A stretch of DNA of 64,000 nt from Pseudanabaena sp. ELA645 (lineage in GTDB: Bacteria; Cyanobacteriota; Cyanobacteriia; Pseudanabaenales; Pseudanabaenaceae), in NCBI GenBank assembly GCA_037129985.1, contig JBAXTW010000002.1, forward strand, positions 14,904 through 78,903. Reading direction: 5' to 3'. The notes below the pieces were generated by a model. That model saw nothing but the letters and a program-made list of their open reading frames with translations. It did not search any database and was not told the origin of the DNA. Positions within the stretch are counted from its first letter, which is position 1, and each line of letters opens with the position of its first letter. Below, one piece after another: positions 33,955 to 40,725 of this stretch. Position numbers and translations under genes: made by a program.

Positions 33955-34007
33955 AAAACCAAAAATTGTTGGGCGGGGCAAAGCCCCGCCCAACAATTTT
34001 TGGTTTT
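33955..34007 (+). terminator. 24-bp perfect-stem hairpin after the ferredoxin gene
   Basis: AAAACCAAAAATTGTTGGGCGGGG-CAAAG-CCCCGCCCAACAATTTTTGGTTTT. It overlaps the ORF-track TTG start of the next ORF, which argues for the later TTG at 34035. Confidence 0.7.
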
Positions 34008-34034: not shown

Positions 34035-34580
34035 TTGCGTCTCGATCGCTATACAACAGGAACATACACCACTGGCGCACCGCTCTGGAAGCAATTACTT
34101 TGGTACTTTATCGGCGCACCAGTTTTACGAAGCTATTTAATTCCTTTTTCGGGTTTAAAAGTGAATATTTTGCGTTGGTTTGGCGCAGAAATTGGGCAGG
34201 GAGTACGCATTAAAACAGGAGTGCGGGTCAAATTCCCTTGGCGCTTAATTATTAAAGATTTTGTGTGGATCGGTGAAGATGCTTGGCTAGATAATCTGGA
34301 CTTGATCACGATCGAAAGCCATTGCTGTATTTCTCAAGATGTTTATCTCTGCACAGGCAATCACGACTGGAGCGATCGCGATTTTGAGTTACGGACTGCG
34401 CCAATTTATCTCGAATCAGGTAGTTGGATAGCAGCACGAGCTACGGTTGCGGCGGGTGTAAGAGTTGGACAGGGTGCAATTTTAGGATTAGGTAGTGTAG
34501 CGACGCGATCGCTAGAACCGATGACAATTTACAGTGGCAATCCTGCGATCGCGATCAAATCTCGTAAAATCAAAGAGTAG
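34035..34580 (+). CDS. Hexapeptide-repeat acetyltransferase, WcaF-like
   Basis: Alignable by eye with E. coli WcaF over its full length (LWW, RWFGAEIGQGVRI, FPWRL, YLCTGNHD, GNPA). TTG start at 34035 preceded by AGGAGGA at 34018-34024. Confidence 0.75.
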   Translation: MRLDRYTTGTYTTGAPLWKQLLWYFIGAPVLRSYLIPFSGLKVNILRWFGAEIGQGVRIKTGVRVKFPWRLIIKDFVWIGEDAWLDNLDLITIESHCCISQDVYLCTGNHDWSDRDFELRTAPIYLESGSWIAARATVAAGVRVGQGAILGLGSVATRSLEPMTIYSGNPAIAIKSRKIKE

Positions 34581-34642
34581 GGGCGGGTTTTGCTGATAAC
34601 CTTACGGTGCATGGTCAAATCATCGACTAAACCCGCCCCTAC
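34577..34642. repeat. 66-bp GTAGGGGCGGGTTT...AAACCCGCCCCTAC palindromic element, copy 2 (inverted relative to copy 1)
   Basis: Its first bases provide the TAG stop of the acetyltransferase gene. Confidence 0.8.
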
Positions 34643-34696
34643 AAAAGATGATTATTTTGTTAAATTCCTAATCCTTAAATTATTTATTAAATTATT

Positions 34697-35647
34697 ATGA
34701 CTGTTGCCAATTCTGCCCCCAGCGCCAAAATCGGACTAGCCTCTCGATTAGTAAATAGCATCTTAGCGATCGCCCCCATATTCAACATAGCCAAACAACG
34801 CGCTCGCAAAATGATGATCGAACGCGCCGAGTCGATGGGGGTAAACTGGCTCCAAATTGCCGCCGATCTTCAAAAACAAGATCTTGATAGCGAACTTGCT
34901 AAAGTCCAAAATCCTGATTTGAAATATCCCGACTATTACATCCAGCCTTTTCATGCTTACGAAGAAGGTAATCTCGGCTGGACACCAGCGACCGAAGTAG
35001 AAGTTGCCGCCTTTGCTGTGCATTCACGGATTTGGAATGATGACCAACCTCCCGTCCAAGGCGATGCTCGTCTGCGTCAAAGTTACATTGATATTGTCAA
35101 AGAAAAAATTCCCACCCCACCGCAGGATATTCTCGATATTGGTTGCAGTGTTGGTATGAGTACTTTTGTGCTGCATAAGGCTTATCCGCAAGCGAAGATT
35201 ACAGGTTTGGATTTATCACCACATTTTTTGGCGATCGCTAATTACAACACCCGCACCAAGTATCCAGAACTTTTAGAAAATCAGCAAGTGCAGTGGATTC
35301 ATTCAACCGCCGAACAGACAGGATTCCCTGATAATTCCTTTGATTTTGTTTCCTGTTTTCTCATCTTCCATGAACTACCTCAAGAAGCAAGTCGGCAAAT
35401 TTTGCGAGAAATCCGCCGTATTTTGCGCCCCAATGGTTATTTCACCTTTATGGATATGAATCCCGCCTCAGATATCTATCGAAAAATGCCTCCCTATATT
35501 TTGACTTTGCTCAAGAGTACAGAACCTTATCTCGATCAATATTTTGCTTTTGATATGGAATCGGAACTAGTTGCCGCAGGATTTGCATCTCCCAGCATCA
35601 CCGCTAACTCCCCCCGTCATCGTACGATAATTGCCAAAGCTGTCTAA
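34697..35647 (+). CDS. Class I SAM-dependent methyltransferase
   Basis: Motif I ILDIGCSVGMST, followed by GLDLSP and FDFVSCFLIFHELP. Confidence 0.8.
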   Translation: MTVANSAPSAKIGLASRLVNSILAIAPIFNIAKQRARKMMIERAESMGVNWLQIAADLQKQDLDSELAKVQNPDLKYPDYYIQPFHAYEEGNLGWTPATEVEVAAFAVHSRIWNDDQPPVQGDARLRQSYIDIVKEKIPTPPQDILDIGCSVGMSTFVLHKAYPQAKITGLDLSPHFLAIANYNTRTKYPELLENQQVQWIHSTAEQTGFPDNSFDFVSCFLIFHELPQEASRQILREIRRILRPNGYFTFMDMNPASDIYRKMPPYILTLLKSTEPYLDQYFAFDMESELVAAGFASPSITANSPRHRTIIAKAV

Positions 35648-35763
35648 AAGCAAATAATCGTAAGTTATTATGATTGCTTCGATGTAGCAGATATTCTGTT
35701 AGTCTTAATAATTAATACCTGTGTAACTAACTACTAAATTCAAGATTAGCAGCATTCTTAATC

Positions 35764-36918
35764 ATGATTAGCACTCTTATTTACGGTCAAAGCTCAACAA
35801 CCACAAGCCTGCGCGAACGTATCTGTAAGGCTGTGGGAGAATCATACAATCTTGAAAAATGGAATGATTGGCGCTGGCAAGTCCGTCATCGCCTAACGAA
35901 ATTAGAACATTTTCAGCAAATACTCGACTTAAGCCCAGAAGAAGAACAGGGGCTAGCGATCGCCCATGAGAAGTTTGCTGTAGCCGTCACCCCATACTTT
36001 GCTTCAATACTCGATCCTCATGACCCAAATTGTCCGCTACGCCTACAAGTAATCCCCAAAGTACAGGAAACGATGATTAACTCTGGCGATATGATCGACC
36101 CCTGCGGTGAGGATCATAAATCTCCTGTACCAGGACTAGTTCACCGTTATCCCGATCGCGTATTGTTATTAGCCCTAGATACCTGTGCCGCCTATTGCCG
36201 CTATTGCACGCGCTCGCGATTGGTTAGCCAAGGGGAAATGAATCCTCTCAAAGGTCGCCTAGAGGCTATCATCAACTATCTTGAGGAGCATACGGAGGTG
36301 CGTGACGTTTTAATTTCTGGTGGCGATCCTCTGCTGATGGCAAATGAGGTGCTAGATGATTTGTTGGGTCAGTTACGCAAAATTAGTCATATTGAATTTG
36401 TTCGCATTGGCTCGCGAGTGCCTTGCTTTTTGCCTCAACGCATCACTCCAGAATTAGTGAAAATATTGCGTAAACATCGAGTTTGGCTGTCTTTACATTT
36501 TTGCCACCCGAACGAATTAACGCCAGAAGTTGCTCAAGCCTGCGATTTATTAGCAGATGGTGGTATTCCTTTGGGTTGCCAAACCGTACTCCTGAAAGGT
36601 GTCAATGACTCGGCGCAGGTACTCAAAGATCTATTTCACGGACTGCTAAAATTGCGTGTCCGCCCTTATTATCTCTATCAATGCGATCCCGTTCTTGGTA
36701 CGGCTCATCTCCGCACCACTGTTGAGACTGGACTAGATATAATGGCTCAGTTACGAGGTAAAACCACAGGCTATGCCGTCCCGACTTATGTGATTGATGC
36801 CCCAGGTGGTGGCGGCAAAGTACCTATTCAGCCAGAAACTTTAGTTGCCTATAAAAATGGTCAAGTTACCATTAGAAATTGGGAAGATCGCATTTATACC
36901 TATCCAGATCCTGTTTAG
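35764..36918 (+). CDS. kamA: Lysine 2,3-aminomutase (KamA-family radical SAM/PLP enzyme)
   Basis: WNDWRWQVRHRL N-terminus, radical SAM CAAYCRYCTRS, VLISGGDPL, and C-terminal DAPGGGGKVP. These closely parallel Bacillus KamA motifs. Confidence 0.85.
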   Translation: MISTLIYGQSSTTTSLRERICKAVGESYNLEKWNDWRWQVRHRLTKLEHFQQILDLSPEEEQGLAIAHEKFAVAVTPYFASILDPHDPNCPLRLQVIPKVQETMINSGDMIDPCGEDHKSPVPGLVHRYPDRVLLLALDTCAAYCRYCTRSRLVSQGEMNPLKGRLEAIINYLEEHTEVRDVLISGGDPLLMANEVLDDLLGQLRKISHIEFVRIGSRVPCFLPQRITPELVKILRKHRVWLSLHFCHPNELTPEVAQACDLLADGGIPLGCQTVLLKGVNDSAQVLKDLFHGLLKLRVRPYYLYQCDPVLGTAHLRTTVETGLDIMAQLRGKTTGYAVPTYVIDAPGGGGKVPIQPETLVAYKNGQVTIRNWEDRIYTYPDPV

Positions 36919-36925
36919 GGAAGAA

Positions 36926-37915
36926 ATGATGAAACTACTAATTGGCATTTGCTGTGACCTCAAAGTGGATTATCTCAAATTAGGTTTCAGTACAACTGAA
37001 GTAATGGAATTTGATGATGAAGAAACAATTATTGGAATAGAAAAGGCGCTCACTGATTTAGGACATCAGGTGGAACGAATTGGGAATGGCAGAGAACTAG
37101 CACGCAAATTAGTAAATGGCGATCGCTGGGACTTGGTATTCAATGTGGCTGAAGGAGTAAAGGGGCGATCGCGGGAAGCTCAAGTTCCCGCAGTTTGTGA
37201 GTTATTTGACCAGCCTTACACATTTTCTGACCCATTAACCTGTGCCTTAACTCTAGATAAAGCCTTGGCTAAGAGAATAGTCCGCGATCGCGGACTTCCT
37301 ACGGCTCCTTTTATGGTGATAGATAATATTAACCAAATCGAGAATGTGGATCTGCCCATGCCACTTTTTTGCAAACCGATTTCGGAAGGAAGTTCTAAGG
37401 GCATAACTGCGCGATCGATGGTGACAGCAAAATCCGAACTCTTAGAGATTTACCAAACATTATCCAGCCAAATTCAACAACCGATGCTAATCGAGCCGTT
37501 TCTCTCTGGTCAAGAGGTAACAGTTGGTATTCTCGGTAATGGGGAAAAGGCGAAAGTAGTTGGTGTAATGGAAATTATTTTCAACGACCGAGCAGAAACT
37601 AAAGCCTATACTACCCTCAATAAAAAGGAATATTTGGACAGAATTGATTATCGGTTGCTAAGCCACGCTGAACCATTAAACACACAAGCAGAGAAACTAG
37701 CTTTAGATGTCTATCATATTTTCGGCTGTCGTGACGCAGCCCGTGTCGATTTGCGTTGTGATGCATCAGGAATATTACAGTTCTTGGAAATTAATCCTTT
37801 ACCAGGACTAGATCATATTTATTCAGATTTGCCAATTATGGGGCGTTTATTAGGGATAAAATACATAGAAATTATTAATATTATTGTTAGTGCGGCATGG
37901 GAAAGATATCAATAA
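36926..37915 (+). CDS. ATP-grasp ligase of the D-alanine--D-alanine ligase family
   Basis: The ATG lies 8 nt after the kamA stop. Ddl-like motifs: DLVFNVAEG, LDKALAKRI, LFCKPISEGSSKGI, VDLRCD, LEINPLPGL. Confidence 0.8.
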   Translation: MMKLLIGICCDLKVDYLKLGFSTTEVMEFDDEETIIGIEKALTDLGHQVERIGNGRELARKLVNGDRWDLVFNVAEGVKGRSREAQVPAVCELFDQPYTFSDPLTCALTLDKALAKRIVRDRGLPTAPFMVIDNINQIENVDLPMPLFCKPISEGSSKGITARSMVTAKSELLEIYQTLSSQIQQPMLIEPFLSGQEVTVGILGNGEKAKVVGVMEIIFNDRAETKAYTTLNKKEYLDRIDYRLLSHAEPLNTQAEKLALDVYHIFGCRDAARVDLRCDASGILQFLEINPLPGLDHIYSDLPIMGRLLGIKYIEIINIIVSAAWERYQ

Positions 37916-37927
37916 AAAGGAATAGAA

Positions 37928-39655
37928 ATGAATATTTTTAATTTCGTTATTGTTGTGATCAAATATATTTATCCATATCGATGGATGGGATTATTTCTGA
38001 TTTTAGGTAGAGTATTTGAGGCGATATTTAATACTGGAGTTGGTGTCAGTTTCGAGTTTATTATTGACCATGCAATTATTCCCCAAGATTATGATTTGCT
38101 GATTTTTATTTTTTTGTTACTTGGCAGTGGTGCTATTTTATTGACAATCATTACTTGGTTAATTGATTATTTTGATGCTCGATTTAGTATTCTTGTTCTT
38201 AATGATATCCGTCAATCTTTATTTGTTCATCTTCAAAAATTGCCAATGGATTTCTTTGGCAAAAATTCAACAGGAAATGTTCTCAATTGTTTTTTGGCTG
38301 ATGCTGAAAAGCTTGAAGATAGTATTATTTACGGGATGACAGTCATATTCTCTAATGTTACTAATATTCTATTTTCAGGCATTTATCTTTTTTGTCTTAA
38401 TTGGCAGTTAGCTCTGCTAAGTATCTTGGGTTTACTCGTCTGTGGCTTTGCTCCAACTATAATCATTCAATTTGCAACTGAGGCAGGATACGCTCTTAGA
38501 CAAAAGGAAGGAACTATTGCAGGATTACTAGCAGAAAATATTCTTTCCCAGCCTGTAATTAAGATATTTAGTTTAGAAGATAAAATGTCAGATAGTTTCT
38601 CCAAACAATTAGAGGAGTTGAAGGAAGTATATATCAAATCTAAATTTTTATCCTACTTAGTACAGAGAATTCCTAGAATTACGTTTATTTTAGTGCAGCT
38701 AATAATTTTAGGTATAAGTTCAGCCATGACCTATTGGCATTGGATTTCTGTAGGAATATTAGTTTCTAATCAAGTATTACTGATTGGGCTACATTCAACG
38801 ATTGATAACTTTAGTTGGGGTTTGCCATATTTAGTGAATGGGGCTGCGGCAATGCAAAGAATTCAAGAGATTTTGCAACAGGTTCCCACAATCCAAGATA
38901 GACCAGATGCTTTGGTATTACAGCCTTTTCAACAGTCAATTTGTTTTGAAGATGTTTCATTCAAATATACTGAGGAAGGTAGAGGTATTGAAAATTTATC
39001 CTTGACAATTAATCGCGGTGATTTTGTTGTGTTTGTCGGATCTAGTGGTGCGGGTAAAAGTACGATTGTGAATTTACTAACACGATTTTATGAGCCGCAA
39101 TCAGGCAAAATTTTAGTTGATGGTGTGGATTTAAGCTTGGTGTCATTGCGATCGCTACGTTCTCAAATTGGTTTGGTATCTCAAGAAGTAATTTTGTTTA
39201 ATGACTCACTGCGTCAAAATATTCGCATGGGCAATTTAGAAGCTACCGATGCACATGTGGAAGCCGCCGCCAAAGCCGCAGAAATTCATGATTTCATCTT
39301 AACTTTGCCACAGGGGTATGATACGCCAGTAGGCGATCGGGGAGGACAGTTATCTGGTGGACAGCGCCAAAGGATTGCTTTAGCTAGAGCCTTGGTGAGA
39401 GATCCCGCTATCCTAATTCTAGATGAAGCCACCTCTGCCTTAGATACCGTAACGGAATCAGAAATTCTAGCTACTCTTCAAAAATTTGCTAGAGAAAGAA
39501 CGGTCATTATTATCACCCACCGACTCACACAAGCCTTACAAGCCGATATGATTTTTGTGTTAGAACAGGGACGAATTGTTTCTTGTGGTTGTCATAATGA
39601 TTTGATAGAGCAGCAAGGGCTATATTTTAATTTGTGGCAGTTAGTGACAAAGTGA
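37928..39655 (+). CDS. ABC transporter permease/ATPase (type I exporter, MsbA/MdlB-like)
   Basis: Six-TM N-terminal half. Walker A GSSGAGKST, signature LSGGQRQRIALARAL, Walker B ILILDEATSALD. It starts 12 nt after the ATP-grasp stop. Confidence 0.88.
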   Translation: MNIFNFVIVVIKYIYPYRWMGLFLILGRVFEAIFNTGVGVSFEFIIDHAIIPQDYDLLIFIFLLLGSGAILLTIITWLIDYFDARFSILVLNDIRQSLFVHLQKLPMDFFGKNSTGNVLNCFLADAEKLEDSIIYGMTVIFSNVTNILFSGIYLFCLNWQLALLSILGLLVCGFAPTIIIQFATEAGYALRQKEGTIAGLLAENILSQPVIKIFSLEDKMSDSFSKQLEELKEVYIKSKFLSYLVQRIPRITFILVQLIILGISSAMTYWHWISVGILVSNQVLLIGLHSTIDNFSWGLPYLVNGAAAMQRIQEILQQVPTIQDRPDALVLQPFQQSICFEDVSFKYTEEGRGIENLSLTINRGDFVVFVGSSGAGKSTIVNLLTRFYEPQSGKILVDGVDLSLVSLRSLRSQIGLVSQEVILFNDSLRQNIRMGNLEATDAHVEAAAKAAEIHDFILTLPQGYDTPVGDRGGQLSGGQRQRIALARALVRDPAILILDEATSALDTVTESEILATLQKFARERTVIIITHRLTQALQADMIFVLEQGRIVSCGCHNDLIEQQGLYFNLWQLVTK

Positions 39656-39666
39656 ATAATGTCGAG

Positions 39667-40725
39667 CTACCTTTGTACCTTGCCATCGGGAAGAGTCGCA
39701 CCTTTGAGAATTGCGCCGACAATATTAGCACTGCTTAACTCCGCCCGATTGAGAAGAGCATCGGTTAAATCAGCACTTGCCAGATTAGTCCGTGCCAGAT
39801 AAGCTTCAATCAAATTTACCCGCACCATAATTGCACCTCTAAGATCAGCACGACTGAGATCCGCACGAGATAACTTCACATCGGTTAAATCAGTTCCCTG
39901 CATCTGGACTCGGCTTGCTTTCACATCTGGCATTACCGCACTGCGTAACGACACACCATTAAAATCAGCATCCAGCAAAATCGCTCGTTCTAGCTTGGCA
40001 TTATTTAAAATCGCTCCCGTGAGAACCGCCGAAGTCAAATTTGCTTCGGTCAGGAAAATCCCCTGCATATTTGCCCCATTCAGTTTTGCTTCACTGAGAT
40101 TCGCCCCATTGAGAGTTGCTTCACTGAGATTCGCGCCACGCAAATCAGCTTTATGGAGATTTGCTCCAGATAAATTTGCGCCACGCAGATCGACCTCAGT
40201 GAGATTTGCGCCCACTAAACTAGCGCTGCTACGTTTCTTTTTATTTGGATCAATTTCATGTTGATCGCCAACCGCCCGTTCTTGTCTGAGATTCGCGCCC
40301 CGCATACAAGCACCAATAAGAGTCGCACCATTTAAATTAGCGGTTCGCATATCAGCATCGATTAAGTTGGCATCCATCAGGTTTGCAAGGCTGAGATTCG
40401 TGCCAAAGAGTGTCGCACCTTGAAGACTTGCTCCATGCAAATCAGCGTTGGATAGATTGACGTTACTTAGGCTGGCTTGATTGAGATTTGCGCCACAGAG
40501 ATTTGCCCCAGTCATGATCGCGCCGCGCATATTCGCACGGGTTAAGCAAGCAAAGGTCAAGATCGTGCTATGCAAATAAGCTTTAGACAAGTTGACATCT
40601 AACCAATCAGTACGGCTAAGATTTGCACCACTAAGTTTAATGCCACTTATATTCAGTCCACTAAAGTCGCGATCGCCATTAGCATAACGGCGCAAAATAT
40701 CTAAATGAGTAATTGCTGATTGCAT
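39667..40725 (-). CDS. Pentapeptide-repeat protein
   Basis: Long A(D/N)LxG arrays (ANLSGANLHKADLRGANLSEATLNGANLSEAKLNGANMQG). Start set at the ATG at 40725, because the ORF-track extension runs through the hairpin at 40823-40871. Confidence 0.85.
   Translation of the reverse strand: MQSAITHLDILRRYANGDRDFSGLNISGIKLSGANLSRTDWLDVNLSKAYLHSTILTFACLTRANMRGAIMTGANLCGANLNQASLSNVNLSNADLHGASLQGATLFGTNLSLANLMDANLIDADMRTANLNGATLIGACMRGANLRQERAVGDQHEIDPNKKKRSSASLVGANLTEVDLRGANLSGANLHKADLRGANLSEATLNGANLSEAKLNGANMQGIFLTEANLTSAVLTGAILNNAKLERAILLDADFNGVSLRSAVMPDVKASRVQMQGTDLTDVKLSRADLSRADLRGAIMVRVNLIEAYLARTNLASADLTDALLNRAELSSANIVGAILKGATLPDGKVQR

Follow-up and report, generated by a model that had tools for sequence, protein, structure and literature searches.

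A horizontally acquired KamA, ATP-grasp ligase and ABC transporter cassette in Pseudanabaena sp. ELA645, probably making and secreting a beta-lysine compound

Between two chromosomal core genes of Pseudanabaena sp. ELA645, a variable slot (positions 35648-39666) is occupied by a horizontally acquired cassette of three genes and 4 kb, which probably makes and secretes a beta-lysine compound. The genes encode a KamA-family aminomutase, a ligase with the Ddl fold and an ABC half-transporter, and all positions refer to the window, the stretch of 64,000 nucleotides that was analysed. In the proposed pathway, L-lysine would be converted into beta-lysine by KamA in a radical-SAM, PLP-dependent reaction; the ligase would then use ATP to turn a carboxylate into an acyl phosphate and couple this to an amine, beta-lysine serving as one or both of the substrates; and the product, a small cationic amide such as a beta-lysyl dipeptide or isopeptide, would be pumped from the cell by the ABC half-transporter. 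What each enzyme acts on, what the product is and that it leaves the cell are all inferred; in our view it is moderately likely that beta-lysine is made, ligated into an amide and exported in this way.

Gene content and layout

Directly observed are the genes themselves, their insertion site and synteny, the conserved catalytic residues, a deletion and a recombination mosaic. The features are as follows.

34035-34580, plus strand: WcaF-family hexapeptide acetyltransferase, core gene of the left flank, outside the cassette (passes the WcaF-family model NF007797 with 236.8 bits against a cut-off of 192)
34697-35647, plus strand: class I SAM methyltransferase (MT), core gene of the left flank, outside the cassette
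35631-35658, plus strand: promoter-like site, candidate cassette promoter (consensus scan only; TTGCCA, 16 nt, AATAAT, 10 of 12 matches)
35648-35763, plus strand: left junction and 116-nt leader of the cassette (comparison with the relative G006)
35764-36918, plus strand: KamA-family radical-SAM/PLP aminomutase, 384 aa, predicted lysine 2,3-aminomutase (profile models and alignment with 2A5H)
36919-36925, plus strand: KamA-ligase junction GGAAGAA, 7 nt (alignment with the sister contig L133)
36926-37915, plus strand: Ddl-fold ATP-grasp amide ligase, 329 aa (Pfam Dala_Dala_lig_C and predicted fold)
37928-39655, plus strand: ABC half-transporter of the exporter type, 575 aa, TMD and NBD (PF00664 and PF00005), predicted product exporter
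39656-39666, no strand: right junction, 11 nt from the ABC stop to the stop of the pentapeptide-repeat gene (sequence read)
39667-40725, minus strand: pentapeptide-repeat protein (PRP), convergent core gene of the right flank, outside the cassette

An ORF check of the window recovered the five same-strand genes of 34035-39655 that an earlier note on this DNA had described, together with the KamA motifs WNDWRWQ, CAAYCRYC and GGGGK and the convergent pentapeptide-repeat gene. The spacings given there stood at 116 nt between MT and KamA and at 12 nt (AAAGGAATAGAA) between the ligase stop and the ABC ATG, but the KamA stop and the ligase ATG are separated by 7 nt and not by 8. The ligase may start at the ATG at 36926 or at 36929. 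For the acetyltransferase, a longer ORF from 33966 crosses a 20-bp hairpin at 33958-34004, and an independent gene call on a sister contig yields a protein of 181 aa, in agreement with the start at 34035.

Because of their tight spacing, KamA, the ligase and the ABC gene are likely to be co-transcribed. The candidate promoter lies at the left edge of the insertion and overlaps the MT stop codon, and since a sequence scan found no terminator-like site between MT and KamA, read-through from MT is also possible. The 116-nt leader matches no Rfam family and is not conserved in the leaders of other cassettes.

Insertion between core genes and recurrence elsewhere

Only KamA, the ligase and the ABC gene form a unit, and the acetyltransferase and MT are unrelated housekeeping neighbours. 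These two genes are adjacent in relatives without the cassette, so the methylated or acetylated product that had been considered earlier does not follow from their presence. MT is found in all 23 good-quality genomes of the genus (78-95% identity), with homologs about 60% identical across cyanobacteria, the closest named ones being from Pseudanabaena. The relative G006 has an empty site, in which the MT stop, a 38-nt hairpin and the PRP stop follow one another and MT directly abuts PRP; in the window this spacer is replaced, and the right junction, unlike the empty site, has no terminator hairpin. Another relative, G041, carries other cargo in the same slot, and the PRP orthologs in G006 and G041 are 84-85% identical. 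The pentapeptide-repeat gene, which the earlier note had weakly connected with self-protection, is therefore a core neighbour and not a linked self-protection gene.

In the genus, none of the other 24 species genomes contains the ligase, and among cyanobacteria it occurs in 11 of 401 genomes, representing 5 of 155 genera. Eight further cyanobacterial contigs share the order KamA-ligase-ABC: those of Dolichospermum and Calothrix PCC 7507 and six of metagenomic or MAG origin. Compared with the Calothrix and Dolichospermum proteins, KamA is 73-77% identical, the ligase 73-75% and the ABC protein 70-72%. This shared order and parallel divergence bear out the idea that the three genes are inherited as one unit; the synteny expected in related genomes is present in distant cyanobacteria, whereas in close relatives the genes are simply absent. 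A GC gradient (KamA > ligase > ABC) is common to three cassettes. A tree of the ligase groups the ABC-linked cassettes in one clade (100/99) and nests the Pseudanabaena pair beside Dolichospermum (99/95). More broadly, KamA adjoins the ligase in 44 of 80 loci, from Cyanobacteriota, Acidobacteriota, Planctomycetota, Desulfobacterales, Pseudomonadota and Chloroflexota.

The ligase and the exporter

The ligase hits Pfam Dala_Dala_lig_C but scores under every curated Ddl cut-off, and Pfam detects no Ddl_N domain in it. Its AlphaFold model (pLDDT 93) has Ddl enzymes as top PDB matches (TM 0.78-0.83), although sequence identity to the Ddl/VanA family is only 22-26%. The catalytic and ATP-binding set of E. 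coli DdlB is retained (K97, K144, E180, K215, R255, D257, E270 and N272), while the residues for D-Ala are changed (E15 to T, Y216 to K and L282 to D), with Asp at position 282 in 35 of 38 family members. A true Ddl is encoded elsewhere in the genome (379.6 bits), and the possibility left by the earlier note, that this is an ordinary D-Ala-D-Ala ligase, can be set aside. As the three-domain fold and the ATP, Mg and catalytic residues are shared with Ddl, the chemistry, an acyl phosphate followed by an amide, is presumably the same, and the enzyme would form amides with beta-lysine as a substrate.

The ABC half-transporter combines PF00664 and PF00005 and has no peptidase domain. All eight of the examined homologs with at least 68% identity directly follow a ligase ortholog, and the closest relatives outside the cassette (55-63% identity) lie in other gene contexts, which marks the protein as a recruited pump of unproven specificity. 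Among the 19 cyanobacterial cassettes found via KamA or the ligase, 12 adjoin an exporter gene from one of two unrelated families (ABC in 3, MATE in 9) and 7 have no adjacent exporter. Export of the cassette product by the ABC protein would fit this linkage.

The same two proteins could instead serve envelope modification, the ligase adding lysine or beta-lysine to a peptidoglycan precursor or other envelope part, and the ABC or MATE pump handling that precursor and not a free metabolite. In keeping with this, the fold is that of a peptidoglycan enzyme, among NCBIfam models the ABC protein matches the lipid flippase MsbA best, and a related Nostoc operon has been placed under cell-wall biogenesis, with a lytic transglycosylase gene nearby (PMC5987646). 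Yet the D-Ala residues are not retained, the MsbA score (378 bits) is far under its cut-off of 602, murein genes are missing in and beside the cassette, here and in the other ABC-type copies, and the cassette is a sporadic accessory element. Such a role appears improbable.

Osmolyte pathways based on KamA exist, as in AblA/AblB, and the amide might likewise stay inside the cell, serving as compatible solute, polycation or nitrogen store similar to N-epsilon-acetyl-beta-lysine, while the neighbouring pump would have an unrelated task or relieve overflow. The wider KamA-ligase-ligase-GNAT operon, which usually has no exporter beside it, is consistent with retention. Against it, the genome search found no AblB-type GNAT in the genome or the cassette, two unrelated exporter families were repeatedly recruited in cyanobacteria, the ABC gene lies 12 nt past the ligase and is co-inherited in nine cassettes, and close relatives in similar habitats lack the cassette. 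Intracellular storage is accordingly doubtful, and the salt-stress osmolyte role suggested before is unlikely because AblB is absent and the cassette is accessory in its distribution and comes with linked exporters.

The aminomutase

The genome has no KamA-family gene besides that of the cassette. The cassette protein exceeds the cut-off of TIGR00238 (332 against 199 bits) and scores best on the AblA model (462 bits), under the equivalog cut-off of 525; the EpmB model gives 252 bits against a cut-off of 369, so that the earlier assignment as lysine 2,3-aminomutase-like and not EpmB is upheld. The alignment with 2A5H (E=3e-128) keeps CxxxCxxC, R134, D293, D330 and K337. In 2A5H the lysine epsilon-ammonium is held by D293 and D330, two aspartates that published work describes as replaced in glutamate 2,3-aminomutase. 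From its sequence, the cassette KamA is predicted to be a lysine 2,3-aminomutase making beta-lysine.

A different substrate (arginine, glutamate or a modified lysine), and thus a product not derived from beta-lysine, is suggested by the score below the AblA cut-off, by good scores on the 2,3-aminomutase models for glutamate (419 bits) and arginine (379 bits), and by membership in a short clade that lacks the C-terminal region of clostridial LAM; the LAM_C domain is incomplete here at its C-terminal end. Retention of D293, D330 and R134 together with AblA as the top model argues against it, and we give it little weight. Proteins can be modified by ATP-grasp enzymes (RimK, LysX), and the KamA paralog EpmB serves EF-P modification. 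Attachment of beta-lysine to a protein, by EF-P-like beta-lysylation or RimK/LysX-like tailing and with no free metabolite, is nevertheless very unlikely, as a translation-factor system would be expected genus-wide and the cassette is present in 1 of 25 species genomes, the EpmB score is low, and the cassette has linked exporters and no carrier or target gene.

Related systems

Among the closest known systems to the proposed beta-lysine amide cassette is an operon described from lichen-associated Nostoc as 'D-Ala-D-Ala ligase 3', in which LAM-SET-Ddl3 adjoins a MATE pump (Gagunashvili and Andresson 2018, BMC Genomics 19:434, PMC5987646, Additional file 2), whose product is not identified in that paper and whose authors' reading is the same as the present one (supplement 2). 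Searches of the literature found no characterisation or product for any member of the cassette family; the earlier remark that no such product was known to be characterised in cyanobacteria holds in that no paper naming one was found, but a related operon was already in print. The two systems share KamA (78-79% amino acid identity) and an orthologous ligase (69-71%), which are sister clades in both trees, as well as a sparse, horizontal spread in filamentous cyanobacteria and an adjoining efflux pump. They differ in the SET gene, deleted in the window, and in the pump, a convergent MATE in Nostoc and a co-oriented ABC half-transporter here; the Nostoc paper names Nostocales and Oscillatoriales, and Pseudanabaena lies outside both.

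The ligase is also orthologous to the first ligase of a KamA-ATP-grasp-ATP-grasp-GNAT operon (with or without a GNAT-deacetylase and a CxxCxxCC protein) of Acidobacteriota, Planctomycetota, Desulfobacterales and others, for which no published description or product was found. Gene order and tight spacing are the same, with 52-71% identity for KamA and 42-62% for the first ligase, and the acidobacterial copies are the nearest outgroup to the cyanobacterial clade. The window has an exporter instead of the divergent second ligase, GNAT and deacetylase fusion, so that a simpler product without acetylation is expected. The path to N-epsilon-acetyl-beta-lysine in methanogens and some bacteria shares the lysine 2,3-aminomutase step, but here an ATP-grasp ligase and an exporter take the place of the AblB-type acetyltransferase, and the accessory distribution is not tied to salt adaptation.

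Sister allele, deletion and recombination

The near-identical metagenomic contig L133 carries KamA-SET-ligase-ABC at the same site. Compared with it, the window has a 584-bp deletion (bases 1594-2177 of L133, comprising the KamA tail, a hairpin, the SET methyltransferase gene and a spacer), which produced the 7-nt KamA-ligase junction. In the ancestral cyanobacterial cassette the gene for this small methyltransferase with a SET domain would have stood between those of KamA and the ligase, and because the window allele has lost it in a clean deletion, its product should be the unmethylated form. Function is retained, with dN/dS of 0.08-0.18 against the sister allele (about 0.1 for KamA). The cassette appears to move among filamentous cyanobacteria and to recombine with other alleles: the ABC protein is 66% identical to the sister allele in the TMD (dS 1.8) and 97% in the NBD (dS 0.15), and, as judged from these sequences, the TMD part at about 37928-38800 is a segment exchanged by recombination.

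Gene organization and insertion site

Between a methyltransferase gene and a convergent pentapeptide-repeat gene, Pseudanabaena sp. ELA645 carries a variant of a gene cluster that is previously in print but uncharacterised. The five same-strand open reading frames listed in an earlier note are all present, and their family assignments hold in profile matches. Of the gaps reported there, 116 nt between the methyltransferase and KamA genes and 12 nt between the ligase and exporter genes agree with the sequence, while the KamA-ligase gap is 7 nt, not 8. Purine-rich, Shine-Dalgarno-like stretches lie within both short gaps, and the pentapeptide-repeat gene ends 11 nt past the ABC stop codon. No riboswitch or conserved leader was found upstream of KamA.

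Features of the gene string
from 34035, plus strand: WcaF-family hexapeptide acetyltransferase (NF007797, 236.8 bits, cut-off 192)
34697-35647, plus strand: class I SAM methyltransferase (family assigned by profile match)
35764-36918, plus strand: KamA-family radical-SAM protein (family assigned by profile match)
from 36926, plus strand: Ddl-like ATP-grasp protein (family assigned by profile match)
37928-39655, plus strand: ABC_membrane and ABC_tran half-transporter (family assigned by profile match)
39667-40725, minus strand: pentapeptide-repeat protein

The acetyltransferase start is placed at 34035 because the longer reading frame crosses a perfect hairpin with a 20-bp stem (33958-34004), which falsely stretches it back to 33966; an independent gene call on a sister contig gives a protein of 181 aa. 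This hairpin lies between the ferredoxin and acetyltransferase genes with T-runs on either side, and judged by sequence it looks like a bidirectional terminator.

The methyltransferase is found in all 23 good-quality genomes of the genus (78-95% identity), its closest named homologs are from Pseudanabaena, and the acetyltransferase adjoins it in most of the genus genomes searched. The ATP-grasp ligase gene, by contrast, occurs in none of the 24 other species genomes of Pseudanabaena. The relative G006 has an empty site, in which a 38-nt hairpin separates the methyltransferase stop from that of the pentapeptide-repeat gene. Given this empty site and the genus survey, the segment 35648-39666 is an inserted cassette comprising KamA, the ligase and the ABC exporter, with core genes as neighbours: two upstream of it, and the pentapeptide-repeat gene. 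The methyltransferase and acetyltransferase had been considered as tailoring genes and the pentapeptide-repeat gene as an immunity gene; these roles are rejected, since the three belong to the core and in relatives lie around the empty site. What survives of the earlier interpretation is the KamA-ligase-exporter unit, without these three neighbours.

The slot downstream of the methyltransferase is variable, because it is empty in G006, holds other cargo in G041 (a 968-aa NACHT-like NTPase and a Uma2 endonuclease gene; L097, 2850-6429) and is occupied in G022 by rearranged genes and a transposase fragment (L095, 1-5350). It looks like an integration hot spot.

The KamA protein

KamA aligns with the lysine 2,3-aminomutase structure of Clostridium subterminale, 2A5H, at E=3e-128 (HMMER). 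Its radical-SAM motif CxxxCxxC is present, with CAAYCRYC aligned to CSMYCRHC and a match to PF04055, and K337 (in GGGGK), R134, D293 and D330 are all conserved in the same alignment; from the 2A5H structure, we take the first to be the PLP-binding lysine and the other three to bind the substrate lysine. The protein passes the KamA-family model TIGR00238 (332.2 bits, cut-off 199.2). The AblA equivalog TIGR03820 is its best-scoring model, although the score of 462.2 bits is below the cut-off of 525.4, and the EpmB model TIGR03821 gives 251.6 bits against a cut-off of 369.3. With AblA as best model and a far lower EpmB score, the view that this enzyme resembles lysine 2,3-aminomutase rather than EpmB is upheld. 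The C-terminal region is incomplete: LAM_C is matched at positions 2-57 of 127 only, the protein ends at the equivalent of residue 369 of 416 in 2A5H, and C268 is replaced by Ser. The absent region presumably corresponds to that forming the zinc site of the clostridial enzyme, with its cysteines. The genome holds no second KamA-family gene, and the predicted conversion of L-lysine into beta-lysine is well supported by the conserved residues.

The ATP-grasp ligase

The AlphaFold model of the ligase (pLDDT 93.1) has only Ddl/Van ligases among its top 50 PDB matches, the best with TM-scores of 0.78-0.83 over the whole length at 22-26% identity. The residues that serve ATP binding, Mg binding and catalysis in E. 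coli DdlB are all kept (K97, K144, E180, K215, R255, D257, E270 and N272), with roles that we assume from established Ddl structures. The D-Ala-binding set is not preserved: S150 and S281 remain, while E15 is replaced by T, Y216 by K and L282 by D. An Asp at the position of DdlB 282 is found in 35 of 38 family members, and such an acidic residue at the second D-Ala site hints at a nucleophile with a second positive charge, as in beta-lysine. The protein also scores below the curated Ddl cut-offs (150.5 against 243 bits for NF002378, 113.5 against 245.65 for TIGR01205), and a separate true Ddl gene lies on contig C318 (379.6 bits), with only weak Ddl-like matches elsewhere in the genome. For these three reasons the ligase is not an ordinary Ddl, which agrees with the reading in the earlier note.

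The ABC exporter

The third gene encodes a type I, ABCB-like half-transporter in which a PF00664 membrane domain is fused to a PF00005 nucleotide-binding domain, with GSSGAGKST (Walker A), LSGGQRQR (signature) and ILILDEATS (Walker B) in the translation; it passes no specific NCBIfam equivalog cut-off. Its homologs fall into about a dozen clusters at 68% identity or more, followed by a large family at 55-63% (Microcoleus, Planktothrix and others). In the close group, all eight members inspected lie directly after the ligase, and those of the distant group stand beside a 291-294-aa methyltransferase. On contigs L118-L122 of this wider family (for example L120, 6659-9473), the latter is a class I enzyme consistently encoded next downstream. 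In Rhizonema (L136, 1028-5941), a wider-family ABC gene accompanies another Ddl-like ATP-grasp ligase and a methyltransferase, which may be a second orphan ligase-pump module.

Related cassettes and their origin

Among KamA relatives taken from 80 genomes, 44 are followed by an ortholog of the ligase. The usual order outside cyanobacteria is KamA, ligase, a divergent second ligase and a GNAT, sometimes with a CxxCxxCC protein after KamA and a GNAT-deacetylase fusion before the GNAT. Cyanobacteria have the first ligase only, often with a small SET-domain gene between it and KamA. The second ligase and GNAT found in most non-cyanobacterial loci are both missing from the window. The ligase was detected in 11 of 401 sampled cyanobacterial genomes (5 of 155 genera), and the 19 cyanobacterial cassettes found via KamA or the ligase comprise nine with a convergent MATE pump, three with ABC and seven without a visible pump. 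The claimed synteny of the three genes holds in other cyanobacterial contigs, where ABC follows the ligase in all eight inspected, but not in relatives of the same genus, which lack the ligase.

The nearest published counterpart is the "D-Ala-D-Ala ligase 3 operon" from a lichen Nostoc, consisting of LAM, SET and Ddl3 with a nearby MATE pump (Gagunashvili and Andresson 2018, PMC5987646, Additional file 2). Its LAM and Ddl3 are orthologous to the window proteins (78-79% and 69-71% amino acid identity) and likewise side by side, and in the ligase tree its clade is sister to that of the window cassette, with support of 98/94 or better. The differences are that SET separates LAM from Ddl3 in Nostoc whereas only 7 nt do so in the window, that an ABC half-transporter takes the place of the MATE pump, and that the two hosts belong to different orders of cyanobacteria.

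KamA, ligase and ABC of the window are 77, 75 and 72% identical to those of Dolichospermum and 73, 73 and 70% to those of Calothrix PCC 7507, and the three cassettes have a GC gradient in common. In the ligase tree, ABC-linked cassettes form a clade (100/99) with the Pseudanabaena pair beside Dolichospermum (99/95); the sister group of the ABC-linked clade is the Nostoc SET/MATE clade (98/94), with acidobacterial operons as the nearest outgroup. The parallel divergence, GC gradient and ligase tree together indicate that KamA, ligase and ABC move as a unit, and that the Pseudanabaena cassette had a Nostocales-like source. A separate, recent insertion of the ABC gene, considered because of its low GC, was rejected since this gradient is also seen in Calothrix and Dolichospermum.

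The sister allele

Two metagenomic contigs carry, at the same site and in the same order, fdx, acetyltransferase, methyltransferase, KamA, SET, ligase, ABC and the start of the convergent gene. On one of them, L133, the flanks are identical to the window (methyltransferase end 104/104 aa, pentapeptide-repeat end 44/44 aa), and identity within the cassette is 97.7% for KamA, 90% for the ligase and 82% for ABC. Divergence is uneven: dS is 0.075 over KamA codons 1-300, about 0.27 over the KamA 3' end, ligase and ABC linker, about 1.8 in the ABC membrane domain (66% amino acid identity) and 0.15 in its nucleotide-binding domain (97%), with dN/dS at 0.08-0.18 throughout. Read from these sequence comparisons, the divergence is a recombination mosaic under purifying selection and not adaptive; for the swapped membrane domain, recombination rather than positive selection is indicated by a dN/dS of 0.13 with saturated dS. 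A substrate change in which this domain tracks SET was also rejected, because the window domain is nearest to P0127, which lacks SET, and to P0123, and that of the SET-positive sister to the SET-less P0126 and P0128.

Compared with L133, 584 bp are missing from the window: the final codons of KamA, which is slightly longer in L133, followed by a hairpin, the SET gene and its spacer. This deletion leaves TAG-GGAAGAA-ATG. Since Dolichospermum retains only a remnant of SET and several other cassettes lack it, SET is an optional tailoring gene that was lost repeatedly.

Proposed pathway and alternatives

In the proposed pathway, KamA would convert L-lysine into beta-lysine, a step that its conserved residues support well. 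The ligase would then use ATP to form an amide in which beta-lysine is one partner or both, a step suggested by KamA-ligase adjacency across phyla and by the intact catalytic residues. An ABC dimer would finally export the product, a step based on two pump families having been recruited repeatedly and independently. An extended version, which we regard as doubtful, is that KamA and the ligase suffice for template-free synthesis of a natural beta-peptide (beta-lysyl-beta-lysine or short oligo-beta-lysine). Filamentous cyanobacteria would have combined this minimal synthetase with a dedicated pump in a mobile cassette, through which a cationic allelochemical or signal is secreted. This version draws on analogy with Ddl, which likewise joins two copies of one amino acid; if true, the natural variants, which differ in the presence of SET, the number of ligases (one or two) and the type of pump (ABC or MATE), would yield a small family of related products.

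Four rival readings are considered, each of them unlikely. Modification of the cell wall is a rival for a ligase that has the ATP-grasp fold and catalytic set in common with Ddl, but not its full D-Ala-binding set or scores above the curated cut-offs. The product might instead be a retained solute, as in the AblA/AblB pathway to N-epsilon-acetyl-beta-lysine; that pathway includes an AblB-type GNAT, for which TIGR03827 has no match at E <= 0.001 anywhere in this genome. KamA could also act on another amino acid, a reading to be set against its conserved lysine-binding positions. Protein modification in the form of beta-lysylation of EF-P (EpmA/EpmB) or other proteins was rejected on the EpmB score and on a distribution (1 of 25 species genomes of the genus) at odds with housekeeping conservation.

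The pairing of KamA with a Ddl-like ligase is widespread across bacterial phyla, and no paper identifying its product was found in the searchable literature, where the 2018 Nostoc note (PMC5987646) is the only one found on the operon. Of the forms seen, the one in the window is the smallest that is self-contained: a single aminomutase, ligase and pump within about 4 kb whose ends are defined. Natural controls exist in the empty site of a relative, the near-identical SET-carrying sister allele and copies with a broken KamA. Being minimal, bounded and provided with such alleles, the cassette is a convenient entry for product identification by heterologous expression, and would help to establish whether cyanobacteria secrete beta-lysine amides as metabolites. 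A product found here would also be a starting point for the much larger KamA-ligase-ligase-GNAT operon family.

Variation among other cassettes

On three contigs (L011, 9023-10216; L134, 5151-5770; L147, 490-1647), KamA is broken but the ligase is intact, as is any pump. KamA is interrupted by an IS-type transposase in Cylindrospermum NIES-4074, has an internal deletion on an ABC-type contig beside PatG-like cyanobactin proteases, and is split into two ORFs on a further contig. Tandem ligase duplicates, distinct from the old ligase pair of the non-cyanobacterial operon, occur in Argonema galeatum (L123, 7336-9445; copies 73% identical) and in a metagenomic ABC-type cassette (L147, 1819-3796).

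G323, a 1.8-Mb genome of the same phylum and a different class, has the four-gene form with KamA, two ligases and a GNAT (contig L146), its copies lying on long branches near planctomycete and proteobacterial ones; the cassette of photosynthetic cyanobacteria is not vertically inherited from this lineage. A contig labelled as an Acetobacteraceae MAG (CAZZZY010000045.1) carries a Nostoc-type KamA-SET-ligase-MATE cassette with 78-84% identity to Nostoc copies, falls inside the Nostoc clade in both trees and is probably a mis-binned cyanobiont contig. In two Nostocaceae-type cassettes (L149, 3132-4994; L150, 6764-8584), an RlaP-family nucleotidyltransferase gene overlaps the ABC stop and is followed by a Uma2 endonuclease gene, and an N-terminal fragment of a reverse transcriptase immediately precedes KamA on L148; these neighbours may be hitch-hiking mobile or defence genes.
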